This document shows, in pieces, positions 4,748-33,251 of a stretch of 39,531 bases of DNA (positions within the stretch are counted from its first letter, which is position 1; each line of letters opens with the position of its first letter). Position numbers and translations under genes: made by a program. Origin of the DNA: a virus (taxonomy: Duplodnaviria; Heunggongvirae; Uroviricota; Caudoviricetes); the IMG/VR virus record IMGVR_UViG_2548876950_000007; one strand, 5' to 3'. Under the pieces are notes generated by a model that was not told the DNA's origin, did no database searches, and worked only from the letters and a program-made list of their open reading frames with translations.

Positions 4748-7735
4748 ATGAGCTTAAGCGATCAGGTGGTAATTGCCACCAGCATAGAAACGCTGATCGA
4801 GCTGCTTAAGAACCTGCCCGATTATGGGCGGGTTTCGTATGTGGTGACAGCGAAGGGAGACGAGGTAAAAACAGCGTTTGATATCGTCGATGCCTCAGCT
4901 CTTTTGGTATCCAATACTCTGGATGGGAAAATTAATCCTGACTATCCCCAGGAACTTCAGCCGCGCGACCGGACCCGCGCATCCAGCCTTCTTCAGGTTA
5001 ACCAGATATCCAAAGATTTGCGGCCTGCTCAGCTTACCGATTCCGGTTTATCCAGCCATGGCGCGCCGATAATTGGTGAGGACAATGCCGTTGAGTCAGG
5101 TAATGGACGGACCATGGGAATCATTAAAGCCTATCAGGACGGCAATGCGGATCGGTATCGTGAGTACCTGATTGAACATGCGACCGAATTCGGCATACGA
5201 CCTGAAAAGGTTGAATCAATGACGGCTCCTGTACTGGTGCGCCGCCGGTTAACTAAGGTTGACCGCGTTCAGTTTGCCAAGGACTCAAATATTTCTGATC
5301 TTCAGGAAATGGCAGCCAGTGAAAAGGCTTTTGTTGATGCCGACAGCATAACACCGGCGATGATGGCGCTGTTTAATCCGTCAGAAAGCGGAGATCTGCT
5401 TAGCCGCAGTAATGACGCGTTTATTCGCGGATTCATGACGCAAGTTGGTGCCACACAGGCTGCTGGCCTTGTAACGGAAGATGGGCGACCAACGCGGCAA
5501 CTTGTTGACCGTATACAAAACGCGATCTTTGCCAAGGCATATAAGGATGCGCGCCTGGTAAGGATGGTTGCAGAAGAACCTGATCCGGATATGCGTAATG
5601 TTCTGACGGCGCTTAATGCGGCAGCCAATGATTTTGTCCAGATGCAGGCTTTATCAGGAGAAGCGCACAAGCAGGCTGTGACAACTATTGTTGATGGCAT
5701 TGAGACAGCGGATAGCCTCGATAAAAAGGCGCTGGCGGCATTGAAAGATGCGGTAGACCTGGTAAGGCAATCGAAGGAGTCAGGCCAGCATATTACCGAT
5801 GTTATTGCTCAGGGGGATATGTTCAGCGAAACGGCCCCGGAAGTGAAAGCACTCGCGTTGTTCATCGTCGCGAATAACCGTAGCGCGAAGCGTATGGCCA
5901 CCGCCTTTAAGTTGATGGCGCAACGTATCAATGATGAGTTACAGCACCAGGGCCAGGCGCTCGGGGATATGTTTGGCGGCGGCGATGTGTCGTTACAGGA
6001 TATCCTTCGCCAAGTATCTCAGGAACTGGAAAACGAAGGTATGCAAGGGATATCTGGCGGTCTTTTCGAGTCAGCTTCTGGCGGTAGTTACAACGGTGTT
6101 GCTCCATATACCAGCTTGCTATTACATCGGGCATCCGGCATCAAAGACATTATTCATCTGATCAGGCTGCTTTCCCGTACAGATCCCCAGGATGAACAGC
6201 TTGTTCAAGTGCTTGCGCATTTTGTTCGAATGCCTGTTGCCGACGTGAAAAAATGGTGCCGATTATTCGGTATCAGCAATTCGTTACTTCGCGGCTTGTT
6301 AAATCACGCATCCTCCCTTGGGCGCGATGGCTTTGACGAGATAGCGCAGGCGATAAAAAACGGAGATATGCCACCAGCTATTGACTGGTTTTCCATTCGC
6401 CCAACCAGGGTGAAAGCATTCCTTAGCGCGGCGCATTCGGCATCACCATTGGCAGAAATGGTTCAGAGGTTGTCGCTCATATTCACAGACCATACCGCGT
6501 TGGGTGATCTGACTCTGGACGAGATGAAAGAAGCCTCCATTCAGTGGGCCGATCAACAAAATGAGGTTAACTCTGACTTCTTGCCAGCATTCAGGAAGGC
6601 CGTTAGTAAAGCGGATGATGCCCGTGGAATTCTGAAGGCATTTAAGGCATTGCAAAGTCGGGTTAATAAACATGTCGGTGATATCGATGGGGTAACGGCG
6701 GAAGGCAGGGATATCCTTAAAGAGCACGGCATAACGCCAGAGTTTATTGATGAGATCAGGACGGATATGCAGCGTGAGGTCGTATCGTCCCTGCAAATCG
6801 TAGCCAGAGCGTTGGCGGATGCTAATCCGAAGAGTGCGGCCATTGTTAACCGGGTTATTGGTGATATTGAAGCATCGGAGGGCATGGGGGCGCTGAAACT
6901 CTTCCTTTCGCGAGCGTTTAATCCTAACGGCAATATTCTCCCTGGCATTATTGGTGAGGCTAAAAGGTATGTCAGTGAAGAAGAACTTGAGCAGCTTGAC
7001 CAACTACTTAAGCGATTCTCATATAACCCGCAGACACGCTGGCAAATGAATCAGCGAAGTATGGGTTCGGTCCACGAGAAAGTGTTATCTGCCATGAACA
7101 GTGCGATCGCAAACTCATCCGTATCTGAAGAAAAAGCTCTTGAGTGGGCCGACTCTTTTATCACGGAAGAAGTGGAAGAAGCCCGCGCTGGACAGAATGG
7201 TGGGATAGACCTGCGCAAGGAACTTGCTGATATTTATCGCCTGACCGGCGGTAAAATTTCGACCTTATCAAAGGTGGTTCACCACCAGGGAAGGGCATAT
7301 GCAAATCTTAATGGTGTTGTTGCTGTCAATTTGAACGATGAAAATGCAAGTGCACTGTGGCACGAGCTGGGTCATCATCTTGAGTACAGTAACCCTGGTT
7401 TGTTAGAGAAAGCCCGGTCATTCCTGAAGGCCAATGTTGAAGGGGATAAGCCATCTTTCGTTAATATCGGTGGGCGTGGCAAGCCTGAATGGTGCTTCAG
7501 ATCTCGATTGAGTAATATTTATATGGCGAAGGTATACCCGCCAGCCTTAGTGAGTAATTCCGGGAAAATTCGGCAGAAATCACCGACTATTTCCAAAACG
7601 TCAGCAACGGAAGTATTCTCTATGGCTCTTCAGTTGTATCATGACAAAGAGGCCACTGCCGCATCACTGATGAATGGTGACGGATTGCTGGAACTGTTAT
7701 TAGGTGTGGCAAAGGAGCTAAATAATGCAGATTAA
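4748..7735 (+). CDS. ddrB: DdrB (995 aa), large Dar-operon protein
   Basis: Single 995-aa ORF downstream of ddrA; size and synteny with P1. Confidence 0.6.
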   Translation: MSLSDQVVIATSIETLIELLKNLPDYGRVSYVVTAKGDEVKTAFDIVDASALLVSNTLDGKINPDYPQELQPRDRTRASSLLQVNQISKDLRPAQLTDSGLSSHGAPIIGEDNAVESGNGRTMGIIKAYQDGNADRYREYLIEHATEFGIRPEKVESMTAPVLVRRRLTKVDRVQFAKDSNISDLQEMAASEKAFVDADSITPAMMALFNPSESGDLLSRSNDAFIRGFMTQVGATQAAGLVTEDGRPTRQLVDRIQNAIFAKAYKDARLVRMVAEEPDPDMRNVLTALNAAANDFVQMQALSGEAHKQAVTTIVDGIETADSLDKKALAALKDAVDLVRQSKESGQHITDVIAQGDMFSETAPEVKALALFIVANNRSAKRMATAFKLMAQRINDELQHQGQALGDMFGGGDVSLQDILRQVSQELENEGMQGISGGLFESASGGSYNGVAPYTSLLLHRASGIKDIIHLIRLLSRTDPQDEQLVQVLAHFVRMPVADVKKWCRLFGISNSLLRGLLNHASSLGRDGFDEIAQAIKNGDMPPAIDWFSIRPTRVKAFLSAAHSASPLAEMVQRLSLIFTDHTALGDLTLDEMKEASIQWADQQNEVNSDFLPAFRKAVSKADDARGILKAFKALQSRVNKHVGDIDGVTAEGRDILKEHGITPEFIDEIRTDMQREVVSSLQIVARALADANPKSAAIVNRVIGDIEASEGMGALKLFLSRAFNPNGNILPGIIGEAKRYVSEEELEQLDQLLKRFSYNPQTRWQMNQRSMGSVHEKVLSAMNSAIANSSVSEEKALEWADSFITEEVEEARAGQNGGIDLRKELADIYRLTGGKISTLSKVVHHQGRAYANLNGVVAVNLNDENASALWHELGHHLEYSNPGLLEKARSFLKANVEGDKPSFVNIGGRGKPEWCFRSRLSNIYMAKVYPPALVSNSGKIRQKSPTISKTSATEVFSMALQLYHDKEATAASLMNGDGLLELLLGVAKELNNAD

Positions 7736-8030
7736 AATCGCAGCGCCATTAGGCGGAGATGCCATTATCGAATTTGATGATAATGAAGAAGTTTCCGGGC
7801 GTTTAAGCATTATCTCCGGTAACATTACCGAGGACATGATCGCTGAAGCCATAGCTGGGGCAAATCCCAATAGCTATATGGGATTCGTTAACACCCTTGA
7901 TGCTCCCGCAAGTGATGTTCTCCGAACGCTGCATCTTTACGCTGGCTGGTTTGTTGATTGGCCAGCAGTAGAGGGTGGCGATGAGGACGACGATGATTTC
8001 GGTGACAATATTAATCAGATTATATTTTAA
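7725..8030 (+). CDS. hxr: Hxr-like small acidic protein (101 aa)
   Basis: Overlaps the ddrB stop; size and synteny. Confidence 0.45.
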   Translation: MQIKIAAPLGGDAIIEFDDNEEVSGRLSIISGNITEDMIAEAIAGANPNSYMGFVNTLDAPASDVLRTLHLYAGWFVDWPAVEGGDEDDDDFGDNINQIIF

Positions 8031-8189
8031 CCCATATGAGATATAATCGTTCTAATGGCATAAAGTTAGATTGTTCTTATATTCGACTTTGTGCCATCAT
8101 TAGGACTAATCATTTAGGGGTTCTTTTAGGTAGAAATTTAGCAATACATGTTTAGTATGGCAATATTTTCTAAAGGAGTTAGGTAAAAA

Positions 8190-9068
8190 GTGAAAAGAAT
8201 TATTCCTGATAAAAAATGGTTAAAAGAAGAAAGCAGTAAGCGACAAGTGCCATCAGAATGTCCCTATGCAAATTCATATCGATGTCCTAGATATCACGAA
8301 AGTGTTATTTTGTTCTCACAGATGCAAATGATTGATGGCATGTCATATAATAAAGAGAAGGAGTTGAAACAGTTCTGGGAGAGAACCGACCTCTCTTCTT
8401 TATGTAATGGAGAAACCCCGTTGGTCTCAAAAAATGATAAAGGCGGGATTTTCTCTATAGATAATTTCTGTCCAGAAATATCGTTTAGATATTTAGGTTA
8501 CTATGCAGACTATATGCTGAGATACATTGATGAAGATGCTCACACTATAGGGTATGGCATAGCTAAAAGAGATCAGAAAGAAAATGATTGGAAGTATGAT
8601 TGGTCCGAGGTCAATGCTGTTTTCTATGAGGATTGTTACCTCTTTGAGAGAGTTAAACAATTCAATAAAGAACTTCATGATAGTTTCTTTAAAAGACTAC
8701 ATCCGAATATTGTAATGCAAATAAGTAGAATGGATAAGTGTTTGGACTCAAATGACCCAACCGGTGTTTTGCATGCGGCATCTAATATTCTAGAAACAAT
8801 GGCTAAAGAAATATTAGATGATCCAAATGTATTAAATAAATCGTTTGGCTCTTTTTTTGAGAAGTTTAAAAAAGAGTCAAAGTTGCCGTTAGGGTTTATT
8901 AATGCAGTTAAAGATATTTATGACTTACGTAATAAAATACCTACTGCTGGTCATGGGGGGGTGGGGATGCCTGGGTTATCTTTATCTGATGCCATAATGA
9001 TTGCTGCATCAACAAAGGCTATTGTAGAGATTGAGTACAGAAACATTGATGTGGCTGCTATTGATTGA
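8190..9068 (+). CDS. hypothetical protein (292 aa), AT-rich, at the position of P1 isaA; GTG start
   Basis: About 35% GC against roughly 48-50% for flanking genes; SD AAGGAG at 8173-8178; four N-terminal Cys; C-terminal LRNKIPTAGH motif. Confidence 0.5.
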   Translation: MKRIIPDKKWLKEESSKRQVPSECPYANSYRCPRYHESVILFSQMQMIDGMSYNKEKELKQFWERTDLSSLCNGETPLVSKNDKGGIFSIDNFCPEISFRYLGYYADYMLRYIDEDAHTIGYGIAKRDQKENDWKYDWSEVNAVFYEDCYLFERVKQFNKELHDSFFKRLHPNIVMQISRMDKCLDSNDPTGVLHAASNILETMAKEILDDPNVLNKSFGSFFEKFKKESKLPLGFINAVKDIYDLRNKIPTAGHGGVGMPGLSLSDAIMIAASTKAIVEIEYRNIDVAAID

Positions 9069-9108
9069 GCTAATATAGCGAGGTTCCTTTTTGTATCGTT
9101 CGAATTAT

Positions 9109-9126
9109 CCCCGCCTGTCGGCGGGG
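9109..9126. terminator. bidirectional hairpin between convergent genes
   Basis: ccccgcc-tgtc-ggcgggg, perfect 7-bp GC stem; corresponds to where P1 carries IS1 (from memory). Confidence 0.5.
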
Positions 9127-9132
9127 TATAAC

Positions 9133-9915
9133 TTAATCACTTTCTACCTCTTCCGTTGAGTTTTCCAATGCTGCGCGACACAATTTCCTGGCATTGGTTA
9201 TAGCCACACTTTTTACCTCATCCGTCATTGTGCAGGTAATGTACTGATCGAGTTCTTCAGCTCGGATGATGCTTTTCCCAATCATAAACTCTATTTGCCA
9301 GAGCAGATCGGCATCCATCGTCAGTATTTCAGCCTGGCCTTCTGGGCCTGCGGGGAAGCAAACATAAGACTGTTTGCCCAGGCCGATAACTCGACAACTT
9401 GCTTCAAGAATTGCACGCTTGAGGTCTGACTTTGTAACTGAAACAGGTTGATTTTCACCTGTGATTACGCCGTTGGCATGGACGTGGAAGGGCATGTAGC
9501 TTGAAATTCGCTCTACTTTCCATACGCCAGCAAGCGATCCTTCATGCAGCACAATGGGGGTAACCGCGAGTTTCATCTCACCATATAACTGCTGGCAGAT
9601 AGCTGGATTGCTGAATACATCCAAAGGTTCACACTCAAACAGCGGTGCAATCTGCATGAGGTCCATCATGGTCATACCAGGGGTACGAGCAGTAATGAAT
9701 CTGCGCATTCCAGTATCCATTGTGCGCCAGATAGCTACACCATGCTTTTTGCTCACTTCTTCAGTAAAGCCAAGGTGGCACATGATGGTTTTTTCGATAG
9801 CCAGATCAGAGATAGAAACCTTTTCGCCTGGCACGCCATCATTATTGATGGTCACTTCGACACTCTGGCCATTACGTAGGCGGTATTGAATGGTTTTAGT
9901 ATTTTGTGCTGTCAT
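9133..9915 (-). CDS. hypothetical protein (260 aa), at the position of P1 isaB
   Basis: Intact ORF convergent with the 292-aa gene; backbone-like composition. Confidence 0.45.
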   Translation of the reverse strand: MTAQNTKTIQYRLRNGQSVEVTINNDGVPGEKVSISDLAIEKTIMCHLGFTEEVSKKHGVAIWRTMDTGMRRFITARTPGMTMMDLMQIAPLFECEPLDVFSNPAICQQLYGEMKLAVTPIVLHEGSLAGVWKVERISSYMPFHVHANGVITGENQPVSVTKSDLKRAILEASCRVIGLGKQSYVCFPAGPEGQAEILTMDADLLWQIEFMIGKSIIRAEELDQYITCTMTDEVKSVAITNARKLCRAALENSTEEVESD

Positions 9916-10093
9916 AGTCTTTTCTCTGCTTAAAAACTGATGTATTGCGCCTTCAGGTTGGTTAGGAATGTTTTCCCACCAGCGAAAGCAATATCTCGGG
10001 GTGTTCTATTCGTTAAAATCGCGTGCCATTGCCAACTTTGGCGTTTTTTAGCGAGTTCGTGCTTTTGTTGGCGCCTGGACCACCGCTTTTCTT

Positions 10094-10600
10094 TCAGTCG
10101 TTTTTTACACATTCAAAACGGAATATCGTCGTCAAAGTCCATTGGAGGTTCGTTATTGGCATTGCTCTGAGGTTTACCGCCACCGCTGTATTGCTGGTGG
10201 TTTTGAGGTTGGTTCGATTGCCCCAGCCATTTGAGGACTGCGAATCGTCACGGCGAGTGCCAATCATTTGCATGGTGCCACCCTGGCTGACGATAATTTC
10301 CGTCGTATAACGTTCTACACCGACGTCATCTGTCCACTTACGGGTTTTAAGTTTCCCTTCGATGTAGACCTGAGAACCTTTTCGTAAATACTCACTCGCA
10401 ATTTCAGCAAGTTTTCCGAACAAAACGACTTTATGCCATTCTGTTTGCTCTTTCTGTTGGCCCGTTTGCTTGTCGCGCCATGATTCATTCATTGCGATGC
10501 TGAGTCTTCCGACTGCGCCGCCATTTGGTATATATCTGATCTCCGGGTCTTGTCCCAGGGTACCAATCAGGATGACTTTGTTTACACCGCGTTGTGCCAC
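10094..10600 (-). CDS. ssb: single-stranded DNA-binding protein with an apparent frameshift; the conserved C-terminal tail is out of frame
   Basis: N-terminal OB-fold matches SSB ([13 protein letters not shown]...[16 protein letters not shown]); the [11 protein letters not shown]-stop tail is encoded in another frame ending at 10113; frames would join with one extra C in the C4 run at 10221-10224. Confidence 0.7.
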
Positions 10601-10619: not shown

Positions 10620-10636
10620 GAATTAATTAGAGCAAT
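10620..10636 (-). promoter_or_regulatory. C1 repressor operator upstream of ssb
   Basis: gaattaattagagcaat matches 15/17 of the asymmetric P1 C1 operator consensus ATTGCTCTAATAAATTT (reverse complement). Confidence 0.6.
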
Positions 10637-14408: not shown

Positions 14409-17400
14409 ATGAACAAGCTATCTATGGGGGTGTTTCGCTGTTCAAGTGTCAGCGAAATATTGAAATACATTAGGGCAATAACATCTCACCGAGCGCCGAT
14501 TAAATACGGCGTGGAAAAGGTGGAAGGCAAAAGCTATGACCGACTGCGCCGGGAGGCGAATCAGAAGGCGATAGATTTGCTTAATTCGCTGGTGGACGGC
14601 GCGACACTGACAGATGAACAGCGCCAGATCCTGGCTGGGTACACCGGTGAAGGCGGCATTGGCGGGTCCGTCTCCGAATATTACACACCAAAGCCTATCG
14701 CTGAAGGTGTCTGGGAGATCATGAAGCTCTATGGCGCGGACGTAGGTAACACTCTGGAACCATCGGCGGGCACCGGCGTTTTTAATGAGACAAAACCGGT
14801 TGGTACGGTGATGACCGCAACTGAGATCAGCAGTGTTTCCGGTCGTATAAACCAGCTGTTACACCCGGAAGACAGCGTACAGATTTCCCCGTTCGAACAG
14901 CTGGCTGTAAGCACGCCTAACGATTCATTCGACCATGTTGTGGGTAACGTTCCGTTCGGTGGTCGTGATAACACACGCAACATCGATAAGCCTTACGCAG
15001 AAGAAACGGACATGGGTTCTTACTTCATGCTCCGCATGCTGGACAAGATAAAGCCAGGCGGATTCATGTGCGTGATTGTGCCGCCGTCCATTGTTTCAGG
15101 TTCAAACATGAAGCGGTTACGCCTGCGCCTATCACGGAAAGCTGAATTTCTTGGTGCCCACCGCTTGCCTACCGGTACTTTTGACGCAAACGGGACCAGT
15201 ACGGTCGTAGATGTGGTGCTGATGCGCAAACATCCGGCAGAGATGGCTGAGAAAATCCCCCTGGTGGATGAAAGCACTCTTGAATTGGCAAATGTGCTTT
15301 GGCCAACGTTTATTTCTGGCAAGTGGTTTGAAAAGGACGGCCGCCGGTTTGTTCATGGTACCCAGGAAAAGGGCTTCCAGGGGCGTATTGAGGTTCGTGC
15401 CGACGGGCAGATTGATAACCAGGCTCTTAAAGCGAAGCTGATTCATCGTTTCGAAAGTCGTATCGACTGGTCTTTGCTAGATATGGCTGAACCGTCACCG
15501 ACAGCAGACGTTGTTGATGAAGGGGAAATGCGCCTGATTAATGGCGTATGGCAAAAATATGCTGGTGGTCGCTGGATTGAAGCTGATGCTGGTAAGGAGC
15601 TTAAGATTGATGCTGCCAGTTATGGCGCGGATAGCTGGGAGGCTCTTCAGCGTAACCTGACTACAACAGAAGGCCGTCTCGGTATGACATTTACCCAGAT
15701 GGCAAATGTCCGCGATAAGTACACCACATCAATCAGCGACGATATGGTGCAGCTGGTGGACTGGATTAACAGCCAGCCTGAAAAATACCGTGAACGCTTG
15801 TATCGCGGGGCAATGATTGGCCGGATGTTAATTGAATATCAGGATATGAAGGCCGCCGGGCATAGTGCTGAACAAATCGAACAGCAGCGCCTTTCTCTGG
15901 TATCCCGTTTGCAGGCAGAGATTGACCGTTTTGGTAACCCCGGTCGCGGTCCGATAGCGAAATTATCGGGGAGCGGTGCGCGCGCCTGGTTTGCTTTCCG
16001 TGGTGCAATTAAGCTGGATGGCACTATTTCTGACGAGCTGACAGGAAAACTGGTTACGCATGATTCCAGCGCCAGTTATGACTCCACCAGCTATCAGGAC
16101 ACCCTGCGTTATCTCTACAGTGATCTCACTCGCGATCCAATCCAGCTCGATGATTTCCGCCTTGCGTTTACCGGCGAACTGCCAGCCAGTGATGACGAGT
16201 TGCTTAATTTATTGGCCAGCACCCCTGGCATTGCGGTTTCACCGTATGGCGGGATTGTTCCGTTCGCCCGCGCCACCAGCGGAGACATTAACGAGATAGT
16301 GGCACCAAAACAGGAATTCCTTGCCACACTCCCCGACGGTCCAGTAAAGAACAACGTCCTTAATCAGCTGGCAGCGATCGAAGAGAAGCGCATCAAGACG
16401 CCAGCAGAGAATATCCGCTTTAAGCTCAATAGCCGTTGGTTCGACCGTTCCGTCATTCTGGAATTTTTGCAGGAAAACGGCTATCCGGATCTTCGCTATG
16501 TGCAGTCAGTGCAGCTGGAAGGCGACGAAATGGTTTCTGACACCTATCACGGTGGTGATGGTCTGTTCGTCGGGCACCGATACGGTGTCGTCCAGCGCAA
16601 GGATAAAGAAACAGGCGAGATCCGCTACGAGTGGGACCGTAAATCAGGTGAAAACGCGACCGGGTTCCCGGCACAGCTGGAAAAGTATCTCAATGGTGCG
16701 CGTATCGGTGGCAAAGATAGCGCGACGGCGAACGGCTACCGCGAGCAGGTGGCACTGCTTGAGGACCAGTTCAATAAGTGGATCAAGACGCACGATCGCT
16801 ACGATGAGCTGGTTGCCAAATACAACGATGTTTTCAATAGCAATATCCCGTATGAACACTCTGGCGATCCGCTTGGGTTGAAGGGATTAAGCGGTAAGCG
16901 ACAGCCATTTGATTACCAGAATAGCGAGGTGCGCCGACTGTCCGAAGATGGGCGCGGCATCCTGGGCTTCGGTACCGGGCTGGGTAAAACCACGACCGCG
17001 CTGGCGCTTGAGGCGTTCAACTATGAGAACGGTCGCTCCACCCGTACTGCTTATGTAGTGCCTAAATCAGTGCTGGAAAACTGGTATTACGAAGCAAAAG
17101 AGTTCCTGAGTGAAGAAGCCTTCAGTAACTACCTGTTCGTCGGTCTGGATGTACTGATGGACGGCGATCAGATTCGCCAGGTGCCGGTGCTCAATGAGAA
17201 CGGTAAACCTGTACTTGATGCTGATGGCACTCCACTTATGCGCGATGCCCTTAAGCTGGCAGATGAAGCCACTATCACGGCGCGGATGAACGCGATCCCG
17301 CACTCAAACTACCGTGCAGTCGTGTTTACCAAAGAACAATACGCCCGCATTCCGCTACGTGATGACACCGTAGATGAGCATGCACAAGACATGCTTTATG

Positions 17401-21977: not shown

Positions 21978-22586
21978 TTATCGTGGTGCCGATGATGCGA
22001 TAGCCTGTATGATGTTATCAATATCGTTATCGTTCAGCATGAATATAGGTACACCATTAGAGTTTGCATTTTTTTCAGTGCTCATCAAACAAAGCCCCTC
22101 ATACATGCCGCGAGTTTTTTTGAAATTGGCGACTGATGGAGTGGTGTAATTTCCTTTAAAGTGCATTCCGGCTGATTCATAAAAAGGAACCAAATCAGAC
22201 TGGCAAATCAAAGCGACCTCATTTGGAAATGCAAGTATTTCTGCCAGTATATTACTTCCAAGTCCATTACCACGATATTGCTCATATACATATATTTTAT
22301 GACAGTACAACGGAAAATTTCCCGATGGATGTCCGAAGATTAAGGCGTATCCGAACAAGTTTTCTTCATTAGTAAAGCCCATAATGCGCAAATGACCGGC
22401 TCGGTAACACTCTTCAAAAACGTTAATTATGTAGCTTCTCGCTGCTTTCAGCTCCTCTTCTGTCGGGAACATCATCAACCCCATAAGCGATGGAGTATAG
22501 GCCAGATCCTGAAGAATCCCATTAGCTTCATTTTCGAAAATTAGCGGTAAGTGCGGTACAATTTCATTTGCCGAGGTATTAGACAT
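21978..22586 (-). CDS. GNAT-family N-acetyltransferase (202 aa), AT-rich cargo gene
   Basis: Acetyl-CoA motif A (R-x-x-G-x-G in YRGNGLGSNIL); about 40% GC with a very AT-rich upstream region; occupies the slot where I recall P1 has res-mod. Confidence 0.6.
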   Translation of the reverse strand: MSNTSANEIVPHLPLIFENEANGILQDLAYTPSLMGLMMFPTEEELKAARSYIINVFEECYRAGHLRIMGFTNEENLFGYALIFGHPSGNFPLYCHKIYVYEQYRGNGLGSNILAEILAFPNEVALICQSDLVPFYESAGMHFKGNYTTPSVANFKKTRGMYEGLCLMSTEKNANSNGVPIFMLNDNDIDNIIQAIASSAPR

Positions 22587-26716: not shown

Positions 26717-26733
26717 ATAATTATTAGAGCAAT
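26717..26733 (-). promoter_or_regulatory. C1 operator (immC region)
   Basis: ataattattagagcaat, 15/17 to consensus. Confidence 0.6.
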
Positions 26734-26793: not shown

Positions 26794-26820
26794 TTGACAA
26801 TTGCTCTAATAAATTATAGT
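26794..26820 (+). promoter_or_regulatory. promoter with overlapping C1 operator driving the coi/c1 region
   Basis: TTGACA (26794-26799) immediately followed by ATTGCTCTAATAAATTA (26800-26816), 16/17 to consensus. Confidence 0.6.
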
Positions 26821-27054: not shown

Positions 27055-27264
27055 ATGGCTTTCATTCAACCAACCATCGACGACGTTAGACATTGCTCTA
27101 ACGCTTTATCTGTAGACCCTGCCGAAACCGACGCTGCCCGCGCCATTGCTGAACACTACTCAAAGATATCCAATCAGGAGTACCGCATCACCCAAGACGA
27201 CCTGGATGACCTCACTGACACAATCGAATATCTCATGGCAACTAACCAGTTAGACTCACAATAA
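27055..27264 (+). CDS. coi: Coi, C1 inactivator (69 aa)
   Basis: 69-aa ORF directly upstream of c1; matches P1 Coi. Confidence 0.85.
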   Translation: MAFIQPTIDDVRHCSNALSVDPAETDAARAIAEHYSKISNQEYRITQDDLDDLTDTIEYLMATNQLDSQ

Positions 27265-27280
27265 ATGCACTAATAAATCT
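27264..27280 (+). promoter_or_regulatory. C1 operator-like site in front of c1 (autoregulation)
   Basis: aatgcactaataaatct, 14/17; TATAAT at 27301-27306. Confidence 0.45.
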
Positions 27281-27374: not shown

Positions 27375-28226
27375 ATGATAAATTATGTCTACGGCGAACA
27401 ACTGTACCAGGAGTTCGTCAGCTTCAGGGATCTCTTTCTAAAAAAAGCTGTTGCACGCGCCCAACACGTTGATACAGCCAGCGACGGTCGTCCTGTACGC
27501 CCGGTTGTCGTTCTACCGTTCAAAGAAACTGACAGCATTCAGGCTGAAATTGATAAATGGACTTTAATGGCGCGGGAACTGGAACAGTACCCAGACCTCA
27601 ATATCCCAAAGACTATTTTATATCCAGTGCCTAACATCCTTCGCGGTGTGCGTAAGGTTACAACTTATCAGACAGAGGCTGTGAACAGCGTCAACATGAC
27701 CGCTGGCCGCATTATTCATCTGATTGATAAGGACATTCGCATCCAAAAAAGCGCGGGGATCAATGAGCACAGTGCGAAATACATAGAGAACCTGGAAGCA
27801 ACAAAAGAGCTAATGAAGCAGTACCCGGAGGATGAAAAATTCCGTATGCGCGTACACGGCTTTAGCGAAACAATGCTGCGCGTCCACTACATTTCCAGTA
27901 GCCCTAACTACAATGATGGTAAATCAGTTAGTTACCATGTGCCACTGTGTGGCGTGTTTATCTGCGATGAAACTCTCCGTGATGGAATTATCATCAACGG
28001 TGAATTCGAAAAAGCAAAATTTAGCCTTTATGACTCTATAGATCCGATCATCTGCGACCGCTGGCCGCAGGCAAAAATATATCGCCTGGCAGATATTGAA
28101 AATGTAAAAAAACAAATTGCCATCACTCGCGAAGAGAAAAAGGTCAAATCAGCCGCATCAGTTACGCGCAGCCGTAAAACCAAGAAGGGGCAGCCAGTAA
28201 ACGACAACCCCGAAAGCGCGCAATAA
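27375..28226 (+). CDS. c1: C1 repressor of lysis (283 aa)
   Basis: Matches P1 C1 in length and sequence; GGAGGAGG SD. Confidence 0.95.
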   Translation: MINYVYGEQLYQEFVSFRDLFLKKAVARAQHVDTASDGRPVRPVVVLPFKETDSIQAEIDKWTLMARELEQYPDLNIPKTILYPVPNILRGVRKVTTYQTEAVNSVNMTAGRIIHLIDKDIRIQKSAGINEHSAKYIENLEATKELMKQYPEDEKFRMRVHGFSETMLRVHYISSSPNYNDGKSVSYHVPLCGVFICDETLRDGIIINGEFEKAKFSLYDSIDPIICDRWPQAKIYRLADIENVKKQIAITREEKKVKSAASVTRSRKTKKGQPVNDNPESAQ

Positions 28227-28231
28227 ATTAT

Positions 28232-28249
28232 GCCCGGCATCAACCGGGC
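28232..28249. terminator. bidirectional hairpin between convergent c1 and ant
   Basis: gcccgg-catcaa-ccgggc. Confidence 0.5.
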
Positions 28250-28258
28250 ATTCTTCCA

Positions 28259-29371
28259 TTATTCAGCCGCCACCGGTTTTAACAAGCCAGCATCGAGCAG
28301 TTTACGCGTCAACCACTGCTGGCCTTTACCCGTTAATTGAGGCGTCAACCGTATCTGGTAGCCATCTTCATCATCCAGCACCACTTCTTTCACCGTGAAA
28401 TACCCCGCGTTGATGTACTGCTGGAACGGCACATTTTTACGTCCACCGGACGCTATCAGGATGCCGTTCTCCCGTAACCAGACAAACAGCGCGTTTTGCT
28501 TAAGTCCAACAACCTTTGCAAAATTCCCAATCAGGATCCCTTTAGCTACTGATACCCGGTCGGCAAAATCGACTTTAGGAGCGGCGGCCACCAGCTGCTG
28601 ATTTAGCTGGTGGGCTTTCTGTTCCAGAAGCTGCTTTTGTTCAGCCAGTTCGGCAGCCAGGCGCAGAGCTTCTGGAAGCGTCTGGGGGATTGCAACCGGT
28701 TGCTGTTCTTTTTGCCGGAAGTAGCTGTCTTCCAGTTTTTCAAAGAATGCCCATGCTTCATTTGTGTCCACGATCTTAGACATGCGTGCAGCGCCGCGCT
28801 CTGTCCAGAGTGTAAGGCTTCTGGCGTTCTTACCAACAGAGTAACTTCCGGTTACTCTGTTCTTAAATTCTCTTAATTTTAAACCAGTTAGAAGAAAGTA
28901 ATGCTTACCTTCTTCAAAGCGGTCAAGGTTGCGAGACAAATTGTTGCGAATATTGGCTTCATCGACCCCATACCCTCTAGCAAGAGTTTCGGTTGTCACG
29001 ACACGTACTCCCTGCCATTCCAGAACGGGAATTTCATCCGGCTGATTCTGAACAACCACCAGTTCCGATTCCTGAACTGAAGGTGCATAAATTTTTTCTG
29101 ATTTAACGTTAGTTGCTTTCATTCTGTGTGCCTCCTTGCGTGCTTCGGCTGCGACGGTTGCGTAATTCAGATGACCCTGTTCGAGCAGGTATTCACGGAT
29201 ATCGGTTAGCAGAATGCGGTGAACCGCGTGTTTGTCCTTTCTCCGGTAAAGTTGTTTGGTGATCATGAAGTAGTTGGCAATAACGCCCGGTATATCCCTG
29301 GTATTGATACAGGCAGTGTGCTGTTCAATTGCCTCGATCATCTCTTCACGGGTGACTAATGACGTTCTCAT
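28259..29371 (-). CDS. ant: antirepressor Ant1 (370 aa) with an internal in-frame Ant2 start at Met84
   Basis: Bro-N/ORF6N-like N-terminal domain and KilA-C-like C-terminal domain; internal ATG (Met84) preceded by AAGGAGG; sizes fit the P1 Ant1/Ant2 pair of about 42 and 32 kDa. Confidence 0.7.
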   Translation of the reverse strand: MRTSLVTREEMIEAIEQHTACINTRDIPGVIANYFMITKQLYRRKDKHAVHRILLTDIREYLLEQGHLNYATVAAEARKEAHRMKATNVKSEKIYAPSVQESELVVVQNQPDEIPVLEWQGVRVVTTETLARGYGVDEANIRNNLSRNLDRFEEGKHYFLLTGLKLREFKNRVTGSYSVGKNARSLTLWTERGAARMSKIVDTNEAWAFFEKLEDSYFRQKEQQPVAIPQTLPEALRLAAELAEQKQLLEQKAHQLNQQLVAAAPKVDFADRVSVAKGILIGNFAKVVGLKQNALFVWLRENGILIASGGRKNVPFQQYINAGYFTVKEVVLDDEDGYQIRLTPQLTGKGQQWLTRKLLDAGLLKPVAAE

Positions 29372-29589
29372 AGTCCCTCCTGAGCAGAAGCGTTAACAGG
29401 GAGGCACCAGTAACTGAGAGAATTGCGCGAATCGGTAGAAAAGCGGGCAGAGAAAATACAGGGAGCATCCGGAAGCTGAGAACGTGCCTCATCTTCTGTC
29501 GGTGCAATAACAAAGTGATAGTGACGTTTTTGGCAGGAGTAAAAGCGCCAGATAAATTCAGGATGAGCAGGGGTAGGGATAGTAGCCAC
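29368..29589 (-). CDS. icd: Icd-like small protein (73 aa), GTG start, translationally coupled to ant
   Basis: AGGAGG SD (29598-29603); stop TGA overlaps the ant ATG (ATGA). Confidence 0.5.
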   Translation of the reverse strand: MATIPTPAHPEFIWRFYSCQKRHYHFVIAPTEDEARSQLPDAPCIFSARFSTDSRNSLSYWCLPVNASAQEGL

Positions 29590-29639
29590 AATGGCAGCCT
29601 CCTTTTGCTAATTTAAGGAGCTACCGCGTGAGGTCTCAA

Positions 29640-29700
29640 TCTCAATGGCGGTAGCACTGACTGGGTTGAGACTACCGGCGCAAAAGGGAACCGGCCTGCC
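29640..29700 (-). ncRNA. c4: candidate c4-type antisense RNA carrying elements complementary to the icd leader
   Basis: Minus-strand gtctcaa (29666-29672) and gctaccgc (29648-29655) are complementary to ttgagac (29633-29639) and gcggtagc (29620-29627) just upstream of the icd SD. Confidence 0.35.
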
Positions 29701-29773
29701 TTTCGGCAGCCCAGCCAGCACTACCATTGATCTCTGAGCTAAACGCTACGTATGGCTGTGCGATGGCATGACA

Positions 29774-29797
29774 CAAAAAAAGACGCTTTTGGCGTCT
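29774..29797 (-). terminator. strong intrinsic terminator downstream of pacB
   Basis: agacgcc-aaa-ggcgtct followed by T7 on the minus strand. Confidence 0.7.
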
Positions 29798-29928
29798 GTG
29801 TCGCCTTTTGCATTATCCGGGGTCTCAATCCCGGCACCCGTTTTACTGAGGTGCCTGATAAGCATAAACCGAAAATGCCTCAAGGCGCAAGAGGTCAGGT
29901 TCAATGTAACATCGGTAGCTAAAAAACA

Positions 29929-29945
29929 CAATTTATTAGAGCAAA
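29929..29945 (-). promoter_or_regulatory. C1 operator abutting the pacB stop codon, heading the antirepressor module
   Basis: caatttattagagcaaa, 15/17 to consensus. Confidence 0.55.
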
Positions 29946-29948
29946 TAT

Positions 29949-31433
29949 TCATTCATTAAGCCATGCCAGAGCTTCATCAACCTGCGCTTCGTCTTCGACG
30001 CTAAGCACTTCATCCTGGGGAACATAATCCGCCAGCATAGCGAAACAATATGTATCCCAATGGTCTGGTGAGTGCAGGTTGAGTTTTTTCTTCATATCCT
30101 CCTTACTCATCACCTTCCATTGACCTGCGGAGTTAATCCCTACAGGGATTTTCGACGCTTCCTCAATAGTTTCATTACCCTTATCCAGTCTCATACGACC
30201 AGATTTTACGGCCTCTGCGGCTTGAACGTTGGCATAAGCACGTTTATCAAAGTACAGGCTCTTATCTTCACGGCTATGCATCTTTTTACCCCAGCGTATA
30301 CGCTGTACGGTAATACCATAATACTCGTACATCAGATCCGCTGTTGCTTTACCCAGGCCATCGCCATCTATCGCTATGGTGATATTGGGGAATCGCTCAG
30401 GATTACATTCTGCGAAAATTTTGGCGGCAAGCTGCGTTTCTGTAACGTCTGTGTATTCCAGCATTCGATAGTTGATTACACGGCGTTTATTTCGCTGGCC
30501 GGACACCATCATGATATTGATAACGGACTTATCCCGTCCCGTACCACCAGCAACGTCCACACATGCAAGCCAGCCCCATCCTTTTGCAATCTTGACTTTC
30601 CGCCGCGTTGCACGTTCAACCTCATCACGTCCAAGAAGGAAGCCATCCTGTGATTTAGGGAATAGGCCGCGTACCTTAATCATGTACATAGGGTTATCAC
30701 GCCCGCCGTACTCCGCCAGCTTCATTTTGATAAATGCTGGCGTTACCAACGGCGATTCCTCACTGTTAAGCGTGATCGCCGTATAAACGCCATCAGGGTT
30801 ACCAGGACGCTTGGCCAGTTTATGGTGTGTATCGTAGAAATAGCCGCTTGGGCGTGTAGGCTGTGACAGCAATAAGATGCGGTTATCCTGTCCGGTAAGA
30901 GCACCGGTGATGATACCGAAAGCTCTATCACTGACACCGGAGGCTTCATCGATAATATACAGAAGATGATCTGCGTGTTCACCGGCGAGAGCTTCTTCAC
31001 TTCCCAGACGAAAGCCCTTCGGTACTACAGTCCATACACCTTTACCAGTAACCTCATAGAAAGCGGTTTCTGTCAGAACAAAATAATCAGCAAGCCATGG
31101 AAAACGGCTGGTGGCAGTAGCCCAGTTTATCTTGATGTACTTGAATATACCGGTCATTACCTGCTGAATTTTGTTCGCAACGATAATGGCGCGGGCACCG
31201 GGATACATGATTATGAACAACATGATCATGATAGAAGTCATGTCTGATTTCCCGGTACCGTGACCAGACGAAACAGATGTCTTGCTACCCTGTTCCTGCA
31301 CAGACTCAATAATCAGATCCTGCTGCCAGGTAGGTGTTTTGCCGAACAAAACATCAGCGGCAGCAATCCAGTCATAACGATATAGCGCCACCAGCTCGCG
31401 CCAACGTGGATCCGTTACGCAACTTCTGGCCAT
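29949..31433 (-). CDS. pacB: PacB, terminase large subunit (494 aa)
   Basis: Matches P1 PacB in size and sequence; ATGA overlap with pacA. Confidence 0.9.
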
Positions 31434-33234: not shown

Positions 33235-33251
33235 CAATACATTAGAGCAAT
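33235..33251 (-). promoter_or_regulatory. C1 operator upstream of lpa
   Basis: caatacattagagcaat, 14/17. Confidence 0.5.

Follow-up and report, generated by a model that had tools for sequence, protein, structure and literature searches.

A probable second immI-type antirepressor switch at the pacB-c1 junction of P1-like phage-plasmids

The window analysed here, that is, the whole stretch of 39,531 nucleotides of the viral record IMGVR_UViG_2548876950_000007, carries a complete antirepressor module of the c4-icd-ant type between the terminase gene pacB and the primary repressor gene c1. A first-pass annotation, made from the letters of the sequence, had stated that in P1 pacB lies directly beside c1 and immI far off next to kilA-repL, and had left it undecided whether the module is relocated or additional. 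The P1 record agrees with that statement. This raises the question of whether the element carries its immI region at a new site or possesses a second switch, and by which RNA contacts such a switch would be operated.

The module and its flanking genes

The module is encoded on the minus strand, and all of the parts listed in the first-pass annotation were found where it had placed them. In the direction of transcription of the module, the features are as follows.

29949..31433, minus strand: pacB terminase gene, whose stop codon lies 3 nt before the C1 operator
29929..29945, minus strand: C1 operator, equivalent of P1 Op51/Oc4; TTTGCTCTAATAAATTG, a 15/17 match to the consensus ATTGCTCTAATAAATTT
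29903..29931, minus strand: upstream promoter-like site, equivalent of P51a/P2c4; -35 TTGTGT (29931-29926), 17-nt spacer, -10 TACATT (29908-29903)
29855..29883, minus strand: second promoter-like site, equivalent of P51b/P1c4; -35 TTGAGG, 17-nt spacer, -10 TATCAG
29776..29854, minus strand: IsrK-type leader RNA; Rfam isrK RF01394, 58.2 bits (gathering score 50)
29644..29731, minus strand: C4 antisense RNA; Rfam RF01695, 75 bits (gathering score 45)
29620..29655, minus strand: alternative cis hairpin; GCUACCGC (29655-48) pairs with GCGGUAGC (29627-20), a2 in the loop
29598..29639, minus strand: C4 target region in the icd leader; a2 UUGAGAC (29639-29633) and b2 GCAAAAGG (29608-29601)
29368..29589, minus strand: icd-like ORF; 73 aa, GTG start, AAGGAGG eight nt upstream
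28259..29371, minus strand: antirepressor, Ant1 form; 370 aa, 57% identical to P1 Ant1
28230..28251, no strand: GC-rich hairpin between the convergent ant and c1 stops, found by terminator scan
27375..28226, plus strand: c1 primary repressor gene; 283-aa ORF, convergent with the module

The stop codons of pacB (29949) and c1 (28226) are separated by 1,722 bp. The P1 reference does not carry the module at this junction, where its spacer measures 24 bp; thus, the present element has an insertion of 1.7 kb. Homology to P1 stops at the pacB stop codon, the stop codons of both pacB and c1 differ from those of P1, and DNA similarity of the module to P1 is confined to the 3' third of ant. The GC-rich hairpin, which is likely a bidirectional terminator, stands in place of the P1 spacer. 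In related loci, the gene at the c1 position encodes a protein 96-99% identical to P1 C1, and the records of JL22, RCS47 and pHNTH9F11-2 carry the C1 annotation. An insertion of the transposon type was considered and rejected, since there are no flanking repeats at the junctions and the insert just replaces the P1 spacer.

The operator proposed by the first-pass annotation is confirmed by its consensus match; in the window, the consensus is matched 7 times versus 0.11 expected by chance. Its last 3 nt overlap the -35 box of the upstream promoter-like site, a geometry also seen in the annotated P2c4 promoter of P1, whose -35 overlaps Oc4. In an alignment of window-type and P1-type leaders (A2), the -10 box TATCAG of the second site is aligned with TATAGT of P1c4. 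Neither site reaches the threshold of a consensus promoter scan, and both are therefore kept as putative promoters by homology only. In almost every P1-like module, the operator lies at the same distance from icd (-330 to -358).

The predicted Icd is 81% identical to P1 Icd and matches the NCBIfam family phage_ICD_like with 49.8 bits; its gene starts with GTG, where most relatives have ATG. Its stop codon overlaps the start of ant in the sequence ATGA (29371-29368), and a nested start at Met84 (ATG, 29122-29120, with AAGGAGG at 29137-29131) aligns with the Ant2 start of P1, so that the icd reading and the Ant1/Ant2 arrangement of the first-pass annotation both hold. Homology of the 370-aa protein to Ant/KilAC proteins is likewise evident, with the ANT/KilAC domain (PF03374) at residues 258-359 scoring 107.3 bits and being about 93% identical to that of P1 Ant1. 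The N-terminus is conserved, too, whereas the central ~125 residues are replaced and include an ORF6N domain (residues 116-200), which the domain search did not detect in P1 Ant1. Due to this replacement, binding of C1 by the present Ant is not assured. The NCBIfam search returned no family for Ant and none for a 39-aa ORF.

The IsrK-type leader, C4 RNA and its targets

The structured leader noted in the first-pass annotation is resolved by Rfam into two RNAs, each above its gathering score. The IsrK-type RNA folds into three hairpins and ends in an intrinsic terminator with a stem at 29797-29781 followed by seven T's, in agreement with the strong terminator previously placed at 29774-29797. 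It carries a1 (UUGAGAC, 29828-29822) in a hairpin loop and b1 (GCAAAAGG, 29811-29804); the additional copy of the a element that had been reported is found as GATTGAGACC at 29830-29821. The assignment of a1 is based on alignment, as an automated search sometimes took a G-U-tolerant match in the promoter region. That the terminator closes an RNA bearing copies of both targets is a point which the first reading had missed.

The C4 RNA, the only one found by the Rfam search of the window, would have a mature form of about 29725-29647, as judged by alignment to the mapped 77-nt C4 of P1. Folded alone, it reaches -46.4 kcal/mol (z = -5.6), and the MFE fold is identical to the Rfam consensus. The element b' (CCUUUUGC, 29687-29680) occupies the loop of hairpin 2, and a' (GUCUCAA, 29672-29666) is single-stranded. 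With the icd leader, a'/a2 gives a 7-bp and b'/b2 an 8-bp pairing, the b2 element overlapping the icd Shine-Dalgarno sequence AAGGAGG (29604-29598). When further C4 targets were sought across the window, paired a and b sites were found inside the module only.

Over 25 distinct leader variants, each of the 375 cells of a'/a2 and b'/b2 is paired (100%), and 7 of the 15 pairs show compensatory change, three of these positions belonging to b'/b2; the pairings a'/a1 and b'/b1 give the same values (100% paired, 7/15 compensatory). The covariation score is 0.449, as compared to 0.150 for shuffles and no more than 0.136 for slid controls, and draws on about five allele combinations and, hence, on few independent events. 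Since alignment A2 has an offset of 1-2 columns within C4, covariation was counted on the window-type alignment A3 only, and P1-type alleles were read by pattern. Wherever a C4 is present (89 loci), complementarity is full. Two alleles of a and two of b occur in all four combinations, plus a fifth type, always with a three-way match.

With regard to the second contact of C4, the first-pass annotation had named GUCUCAA/UUGAGAC and GCUACCGC/GCGGUAGC (in DNA form, GCTACCGC at 29655-48 and GCGGTAGC at 29627-20) as the two antisense pairs. Both are perfectly complementary in the window, and the latter is paired in 97% of cases with one compensatory pair. Both the Rfam consensus and the MFE fold, however, place GCUACCGC in the basal stem of C4 as its 3' strand, where mature C4 keeps it, and GCGGUAGC has no upstream '1' copy, unlike the GCAAAAGG element over the Shine-Dalgarno sequence with its three compensatory positions and its matching b1. 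It is thus very improbable that C4 acts via the two pairs as originally named. Two-site antisense pairing and its a contact stand; the other pair is a basal stem strand engaged in cis, forming a hairpin which has a counterpart in P1 (CCUGCCACC/GGGUAGCAGG). The predicted equivalent of P1 b'/b2, namely the hairpin-2 loop CCUUUUGC with GCAAAAGG, is fully supported by covariation.

Cognate duplexes have energies of -19 to -22 kcal/mol, whereas the non-cognate duplexes between this module and the canonical module of JL22, which has a P7-type b allele, reach -13.9 and -8.3 kcal/mol, on a measure that takes no account of intramolecular structure and whose background is high (-8 to -15 kcal/mol). By these energies, the separation of the two modules is at least that of the heteroimmune pair P1/P7.

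Occurrence of the module and relation to known systems

The closest full replicon, pHNTH9F11-2, shows 100% identity in the 489 nt of leader and icd that were compared and carries, besides the pacB-c1 module, a canonical icd-ant-kilA-repL locus at 7122-10223. JL22 (99.1%) likewise has both, and in either replicon the C4 specificity of the canonical locus is unlike that of the pacB-c1 module. Two or three modules are present in several IMG/VR contigs and genomes, and in 12 of 12 replicons or genomes with at least two modules, which are phylogenetically non-independent, the alleles differ in each module. To judge by the nearest full replicons, the correct one of the two options left by the first-pass annotation is a second, additional immI-type switch. 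In PLSDB, 308 plasmids have the pacB-c1 module and 314 the uninterrupted P1 junction; roughly half of natural P1-like plasmids carry it.

Three other readings have to be weighed against this one. Relocation of immI from beside kilA-repL, leaving a single switch in the element, would agree with the one C4 of the window, whose ORFs include no kilA-repL downstream of ant, as had been noted before; the canonical site lies outside the window. Relocation is rejected because the nearest full replicons retain the canonical locus, and the several contigs and genomes with two or three modules leave it the least probable of all. An inert remnant or passenger insertion is suggested by copies that are disrupted or chimeric (L034, L064 and the 673R5 record). 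It is nevertheless highly unlikely, given that most of the 62 loci with pacB-c1 context retain an intact icd and ant, as do 308 plasmids, that the three-way RNA complementarity is kept through allele changes and that the operator position is conserved.

Somewhat less remote, though still unlikely, is a role of the ORF6N-containing Ant against a repressor other than P1 C1, by which co-resident prophages would be induced or engaged in cross-talk, as is done by Gifsy antirepressors; the C1 operator would then merely couple expression to the state of the P1-like prophage. The replaced centre of Ant would fit such a role, as would the finding of isrK/C4-antirepressor modules in a large number of unrelated phages, phiP27, APSE and Stx phages among them, and trans-acting antirepressors are on record in the literature (PMC3121763). 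Against it stands what is shared with P1 Ant1, namely the N-terminus specific to Ant1, the start of Ant2 and the KilAC domain. In addition, some elements (L041) have the same type of Ant upstream of kilA-repL, at the canonical site, which implies that it is interchangeable with P1 Ant. The additional immI-type switch remains the preferred reading.

In part order, the module corresponds to the immI region of P1 and P7 (Op51-c4-icd-ant1/ant2), with a C1 operator over the first promoter, a1/b1, C4, a2/b2 with b2 on the icd ribosome binding site, a 73-aa Icd, and Ant2 nested at codon 84. It differs from immI in site, which in P1/P7 is between sim and kilA-repL; in the leader, which scores 58 bits with isrK as compared to 35 bits for the P1 leader, named c4-a1b1; in a/b specificity (UUGAGAC/GCAAAAGG versus UUUGACA/GUUAGUG); and in the central domain of Ant. 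RCS47, pTZ20_1P, JL22 and vB_EcoM-673R5 share the insertion and its site with 88-99% identity; their records annotate proteins only (ant, 'Roi', icd, hypotheticals) and not the operator, the IsrK-like RNA or C4. The C4 gene appears in these records as a 39-aa 'ash family protein'. Two of them have C4 alleles unlike that of the window, namely GUCAAAGG in RCS47, also written CCUUUGAC, and UUGGCCU/GUCUAAGG in 673R5.

Phage D6 has an immI-like region (icd D6_83, anti-repressor D6_82) that is 95-97% identical to the module from isrK through the icd start and agrees with it in both the a and the b allele; the antirepressor of D6 belongs to the Rha type, and a P1-type C1 operator was not found within 430 nt upstream. 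The CI RNA of P4 with seqA/seqC resembles the module in being a processed antisense RNA with target copies upstream and downstream; CI acts in transcription termination of replication genes and not in control of an icd-ant operon. In the APSE-7 record, isrK, C4 and a'/b' are annotated together. The isrK-orf45-anrP system of Gifsy-1 shares with the module an IsrK-family RNA with its own terminator, read-through into a small ORF translationally coupled to an antirepressor, and a downstream RNA complementary to IsrK, in Gifsy-1 the processed and stable STnc1160. In Gifsy-1, orf45 overlaps the structured region and the short IsrK activates translation in trans; the authors of that work likened IsrK to P4 SeqA (Hershko-Shalev 2016, PMC4825925). 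The module is unlike Gifsy-1 in its separate icd ORF after C4, its P1 C1 control and the absence of antQ nearby. Trans-activation by IsrK is known for Gifsy-1 only; for the leader of the module, the sequence shows complementarity of a1/b1 to C4.

The arrangement as such is already known, and the novelty implied by the first-pass annotation does not hold: RCS47 is annotated as pacB-ant-c1, the arrangement is mentioned for RCS47 in a 2019 paper (PMC6906374), and it is present in the PLSDB plasmids counted above. The JL22 paper has no discussion of the module. As the switch is of a known kind, the value of the present analysis lies in comparison and annotation rather than in a new mechanism.

Proposed working and implications

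Most likely, the module is a second self-contained immI-type switch in one P1-like phage-plasmid lineage, working as in P1 with an RNA specificity of its own. The steps taken from P1 are based on established knowledge and on the P1 GenBank annotation, which gives the roles of Oc4, a1/b1, a2/b2, Icd and Ant1/Ant2. In the sequence, the C1 operator overlaps the -35 of the upstream promoter-like site, and a second such site precedes the leader directly. Transcripts would open with the IsrK-like RNA bearing a1 and b1 and its strong terminator, with read-through into C4. According to fold and covariation, C4 would expose a' and b' for pairing with a2 and b2, the latter covering the icd ribosome binding site. 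By analogy with P1 genetics, C4 would be excised from its precursor by RNase P, and the block of icd translation would prevent synthesis of the translationally coupled Ant1 and Ant2. The a1/b1 leader may bind the same C4 loops, acting within the precursor (in cis) or as a decoy in trans, comparable to the short IsrK activating orf45-anrP in Gifsy-1. Once C1 control lapses, transcription would exceed the capacity of C4, Icd and Ant would be made, and Ant would inactivate C1.

Within one plasmid, the module and the canonical immI have distinct a/b alleles, and cross-talk between the two switches is therefore not expected. In a prophage with both modules, immunity would extend to the Ant expressed by superinfecting relatives of either of two specificities, D6-type phages with the same allele among them; an infecting phage so equipped could bypass the C4 of the resident in two independent ways.

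Modules of the immI type are found at up to four sites (canonical, pacB-c1, downstream of mat, and between mat and cre). Their a and b alleles may reassort independently, co-resident modules never share an allele in the sample, and one allele is common to D6, across genera. In the papers that were found, this multi-module occurrence and allele structure are not described. As a tentative view, held at clearly less than even probability, P1-like phage-plasmids might run a combinatorial RNA lock-and-key immunity, in which the pacB-c1 module is an acquired second specificity and the IsrK-like leader a C4 decoy. If this were true, the module would broaden the range of superinfection immunity and provide an infecting phage with a second way past the C4 of the resident.

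P1-like phage-plasmids bear clinically important resistance genes, such as SHV-2 and CTX-M-55 in RCS47 and JL22, and coexistence, exclusion or induction between any two of them depends on the immunity circuitry. With about half of natural P1-like plasmids carrying a second, presumably insulated switch beside c1, the laboratory phages P1 and P7 would be unrepresentative for the control of lysogeny in this family.

The pacB-c1 insertion and its parts

The window comes from a P1-like phage-plasmid and includes homologues of darB, cre, c1, pacB, pacA, lpa, and phd/doc. The antirepressor module, on the minus strand, lies within the 1,722 bp that separate the pacB stop (29949) from the convergent c1 stop (28226), while the spacer in the P1 reference is only 24 bp long and without the module, in agreement with the first-pass annotation. 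Neither direct nor inverted repeats were found flanking the insert at either border. The stop codon of pacB (29949-29951) is TGA in the window and TAA in P1; that of c1 (28224-28226) is TAA and TAG, respectively. The operator, terminator, icd-like ORF, 370-amino acid protein, and Met84 start listed earlier are all present, and what had been called a "strong terminator" closes an IsrK-like RNA at its 3' end.

29945-29929, minus strand: C1 operator TTTGCTCTAATAAATTG, 15/17 consensus positions
29854-29776, minus strand: IsrK-family RNA (Rfam, 58.2 bits; gathering score 50)
stem 29797-29781, then seven T's, minus strand: terminator (terminator scan)
29731-29644, minus strand: C4 antisense RNA (Rfam, 75 bits; gathering score 45)
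minus strand: icd-like ORF of 73 amino acids, GTG start, AAGGAGG eight nt upstream, 81% identity to P1 Icd

The operator is one of seven consensus matches in the window, versus 0.11 expected by chance; the six others (10620-10636, 14463-14479, 26717-26733, 26800-26816, 27264-27280, and 33235-33251; one to three mismatches) are scattered, which fits a P1-type genome, where operators are dispersed. Its 3' end overlaps the -35 of the first promoter-like site, as in P1 immI. The two putative promoters of the module were assigned by alignment to those of P1; neither was reported by a consensus promoter scan. A 68-amino acid ORF (29746-29952, minus strand), annotated in phage JL22 as hypothetical protein gp120, lies across the pacB stop, the C1 operator, the two promoter-like sites, and the IsrK-like RNA; it matches no Pfam family and is unlikely to be a gene.

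The icd stop and the ant start overlap as ATGA. The antirepressor (370 amino acids, ORF6N and KilAC domains) shares 57% identity with P1 Ant1, and its Met84, with AAGGAGG ahead of it, falls exactly at the P1 Ant2 start in the alignment. The least certain point is that this ORF6N-containing Ant would still target C1; its Ant1 N-terminus and KilAC domain argue for it, as does the related locus L041, where an Ant of this type occupies the canonical site ahead of kilA-repL.

P1 immI has the same order of parts, namely an operator over the -35 of the first promoter, a second promoter, an a1/b1 element, C4 (a', b'), the target sites a2/b2 (b2 at the ribosome-binding site of icd), icd itself, and ant1/ant2. 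The upstream element differs, since that of P1 scores as c4-a1b1 (51 bits) and reaches only 35 bits as isrK, whereas window-type modules score as isrK.

Antisense contacts of the C4 RNA

Folded alone, C4 adopts the family consensus (-46.4 kcal/mol, z = -5.6), which comprises a long basal stem and two hairpins, with an unpaired stretch separating hairpin 2 from the stem. At 29608-29727 (minus strand), atop the C4 gene and its targets, PGAP places a 39-amino acid "ash family protein" in plasmid pHNTH9F11-2; the match of this translation to Pfam Phage_ASH (PF10554; 29.1 bits, cutoff 26) is that of a translated RNA gene with compensatory stem changes.

The leaders of 85 related loci, each with an Icd alignment, and of added reference loci split into two families, window-type and P1-type. 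In the window-type family, a1 (IsrK hairpin loop), a' (C4 unpaired stretch), and a2 (downstream of C4) co-vary in three versions (UUGAGAC/GUCUCAA, UUGGAAC/GUUCCAA, UUGGCCU/AGGCCAA). A second trio, b1 (IsrK-like RNA), b' (C4 hairpin-2 loop), and b2 (on the Shine-Dalgarno sequence), likewise has three versions (GCAAAAGG/CCUUUUGC, GUCAAAGG/CCUUUGAC, GUCUAAGG/CCUUGGAC), and the first two a alleles occur with the first two b alleles in all four combinations. Covariation was counted in a 26-sequence alignment with 25 distinct rows. For a'/a2 with b'/b2, 100% of cells are paired and 7 of 15 pairs have changed on both sides, with a covariation score of 0.449 versus 0.150 shuffled and at most 0.136 slid; a'/a1 with b'/b1 gives the same pairing (100%; 7/15) and score (0.449 versus 0.149 shuffled, at most 0.136 slid).

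Of the two antisense pairs proposed in the first-pass annotation, the a contact is thus borne out. The other, GCUACCGC/GCGGUAGC, is paired in 97% of cells, with both sides changed in one of eight pairs and a score of 0.095 versus 0.074 shuffled; 13 of 500 shuffles attain the observed 0.095. In the C4 basal stem, GCUACCGC forms the 3' strand. The most plausible reading of its pairing with GCGGUAGC is an alternative hairpin in cis with a2 in its loop, the P1 equivalent being CCUGCCACC/GGGUAGCAGG; the contact that had been missed is b, which covers the ribosome-binding site.

An additional module among mosaic relatives

The module had been suggested to be either relocated or additional. The closest full replicon, pHNTH9F11-2 (NZ_CP054193.1; 100% identity across a compared stretch of 489 nt covering leader and icd), has the pacB-module-c1 arrangement and, some 43 kb from it, a canonical icd-ant-kilA-repL locus, and JL22 (99.1% identity) also possesses both; judged from these nearest relatives, the module is additional and not relocated. 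The canonical module of pHNTH9F11-2 (a' CUGCUAA, P7-type b' loop) is unrelated in its alleles to the second. Cognate C4/target duplexes range from -19 to -22 kcal/mol, compared with -13.9 kcal/mol for the window module's C4 on the P7-type b-allele target of the JL22 canonical module, -8.3 kcal/mol for P7-type C4 on the window module's target, and -12.7 and -13.3 kcal/mol for P1 with P7, a known heteroimmune pair; by this measure, albeit simple and crude, the two modules are no closer to each other than P1 is to P7. In the sample of replicons and genomes with two or three modules, alleles differ between modules in 12 of 12.

One contig, IMGVR_UViG_2698536372_000019, carries three modules, each with a C4 allele of its own. 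Modules with P1-type leaders also occur at two further sites, one downstream of ref-mat and the other between mat and cre (IMG/VR loci L078-L093, e.g., L089:2480 and L086:2480); the window has neither. Between mat and ulx/darB, at the P1 res-mod position, which is already known to vary (RD-1 of Venturini 2019), the window has a 202-amino acid ORF (21978-22586, minus strand), in place of which some relatives have an immI-like module.

The loci show no fixed association of leader family, Ant type, and insertion site. Besides L041, this mosaicism is seen in L060 (window-type leader and P1-type Ant1 ahead of kilA-repL) and in L078-L093, whose Ants are window-type or intermediate. The immI leader of phage D6 (L008 4002-4269) is 95-97% identical to the window module, with identical a and b alleles, but lacks a P1-type C1 operator upstream and is followed by a Rha-type antirepressor, which suggests that P1-like and D6-like plasmid prophages may be cross-immune at the RNA level.

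Prevalence, precedent, and proposed mechanism

In PLSDB, 308 plasmids contain at least 80% of the module and 314 have an uninterrupted P1-type pacB-c1 junction; therefore, about half of the P1-like plasmids carry the insertion. Leader plus icd was found in 209 of 5,426 complete E. coli genomes (542 of 559 places on plasmids), and 62 of the 85 IMG/VR and genome loci have the pacB context. Novelty had been overestimated. The RCS47 record of 2014 annotates "ant" at this place, Venturini et al. (PMC6906374) mention the arrangement, naming RCS47, and two c4-icd regions had already been noted in a D6-like plasmid. In the GenBank record of APSE-7, isrK and C4 are annotated along with a'/b', and the IsrK paper (PMC4825925) describes a terminated sRNA, a read-through mRNA, a small ORF coupled to an antirepressor, and a processed downstream RNA, likening IsrK to P4 SeqA/CI. 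Both the arrangement and this type of mechanism are, hence, known; neither the RNA anatomy of the pacB-c1 insertion nor the allele structure was found described in the papers covered. The initial observation is confirmed and its interpretation partly supported, and the module is a well-formed and very probably functional example of an already known type of regulation.

Direct observations are the operator and terminator, the fold and Rfam matches of the RNAs, the covarying complementarity of the three sites, the coupling of the ORFs, and the conserved Ant2 start; the steps that follow are inferred from P1 (GenBank annotation, established immI knowledge) and IsrK. C1 would repress the operator-overlapping promoter, and the second promoter would keep C4 supplied in the lysogen. 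C4, cut from its precursor, would block the icd ribosome-binding site, and the resulting loss of coupling and polarity would prevent Ant synthesis; the a1/b1 leader would engage C4 through the same loops, either in cis or by acting as a decoy. Upon a rise in transcription, Icd and Ant1/Ant2 would be made, and Ant would inactivate C1. Because their alleles differ, the canonical and pacB-c1 switches should operate without cross-talk. If they are so insulated, the antirepressors of a wider range of superinfecting relatives would be silenced.
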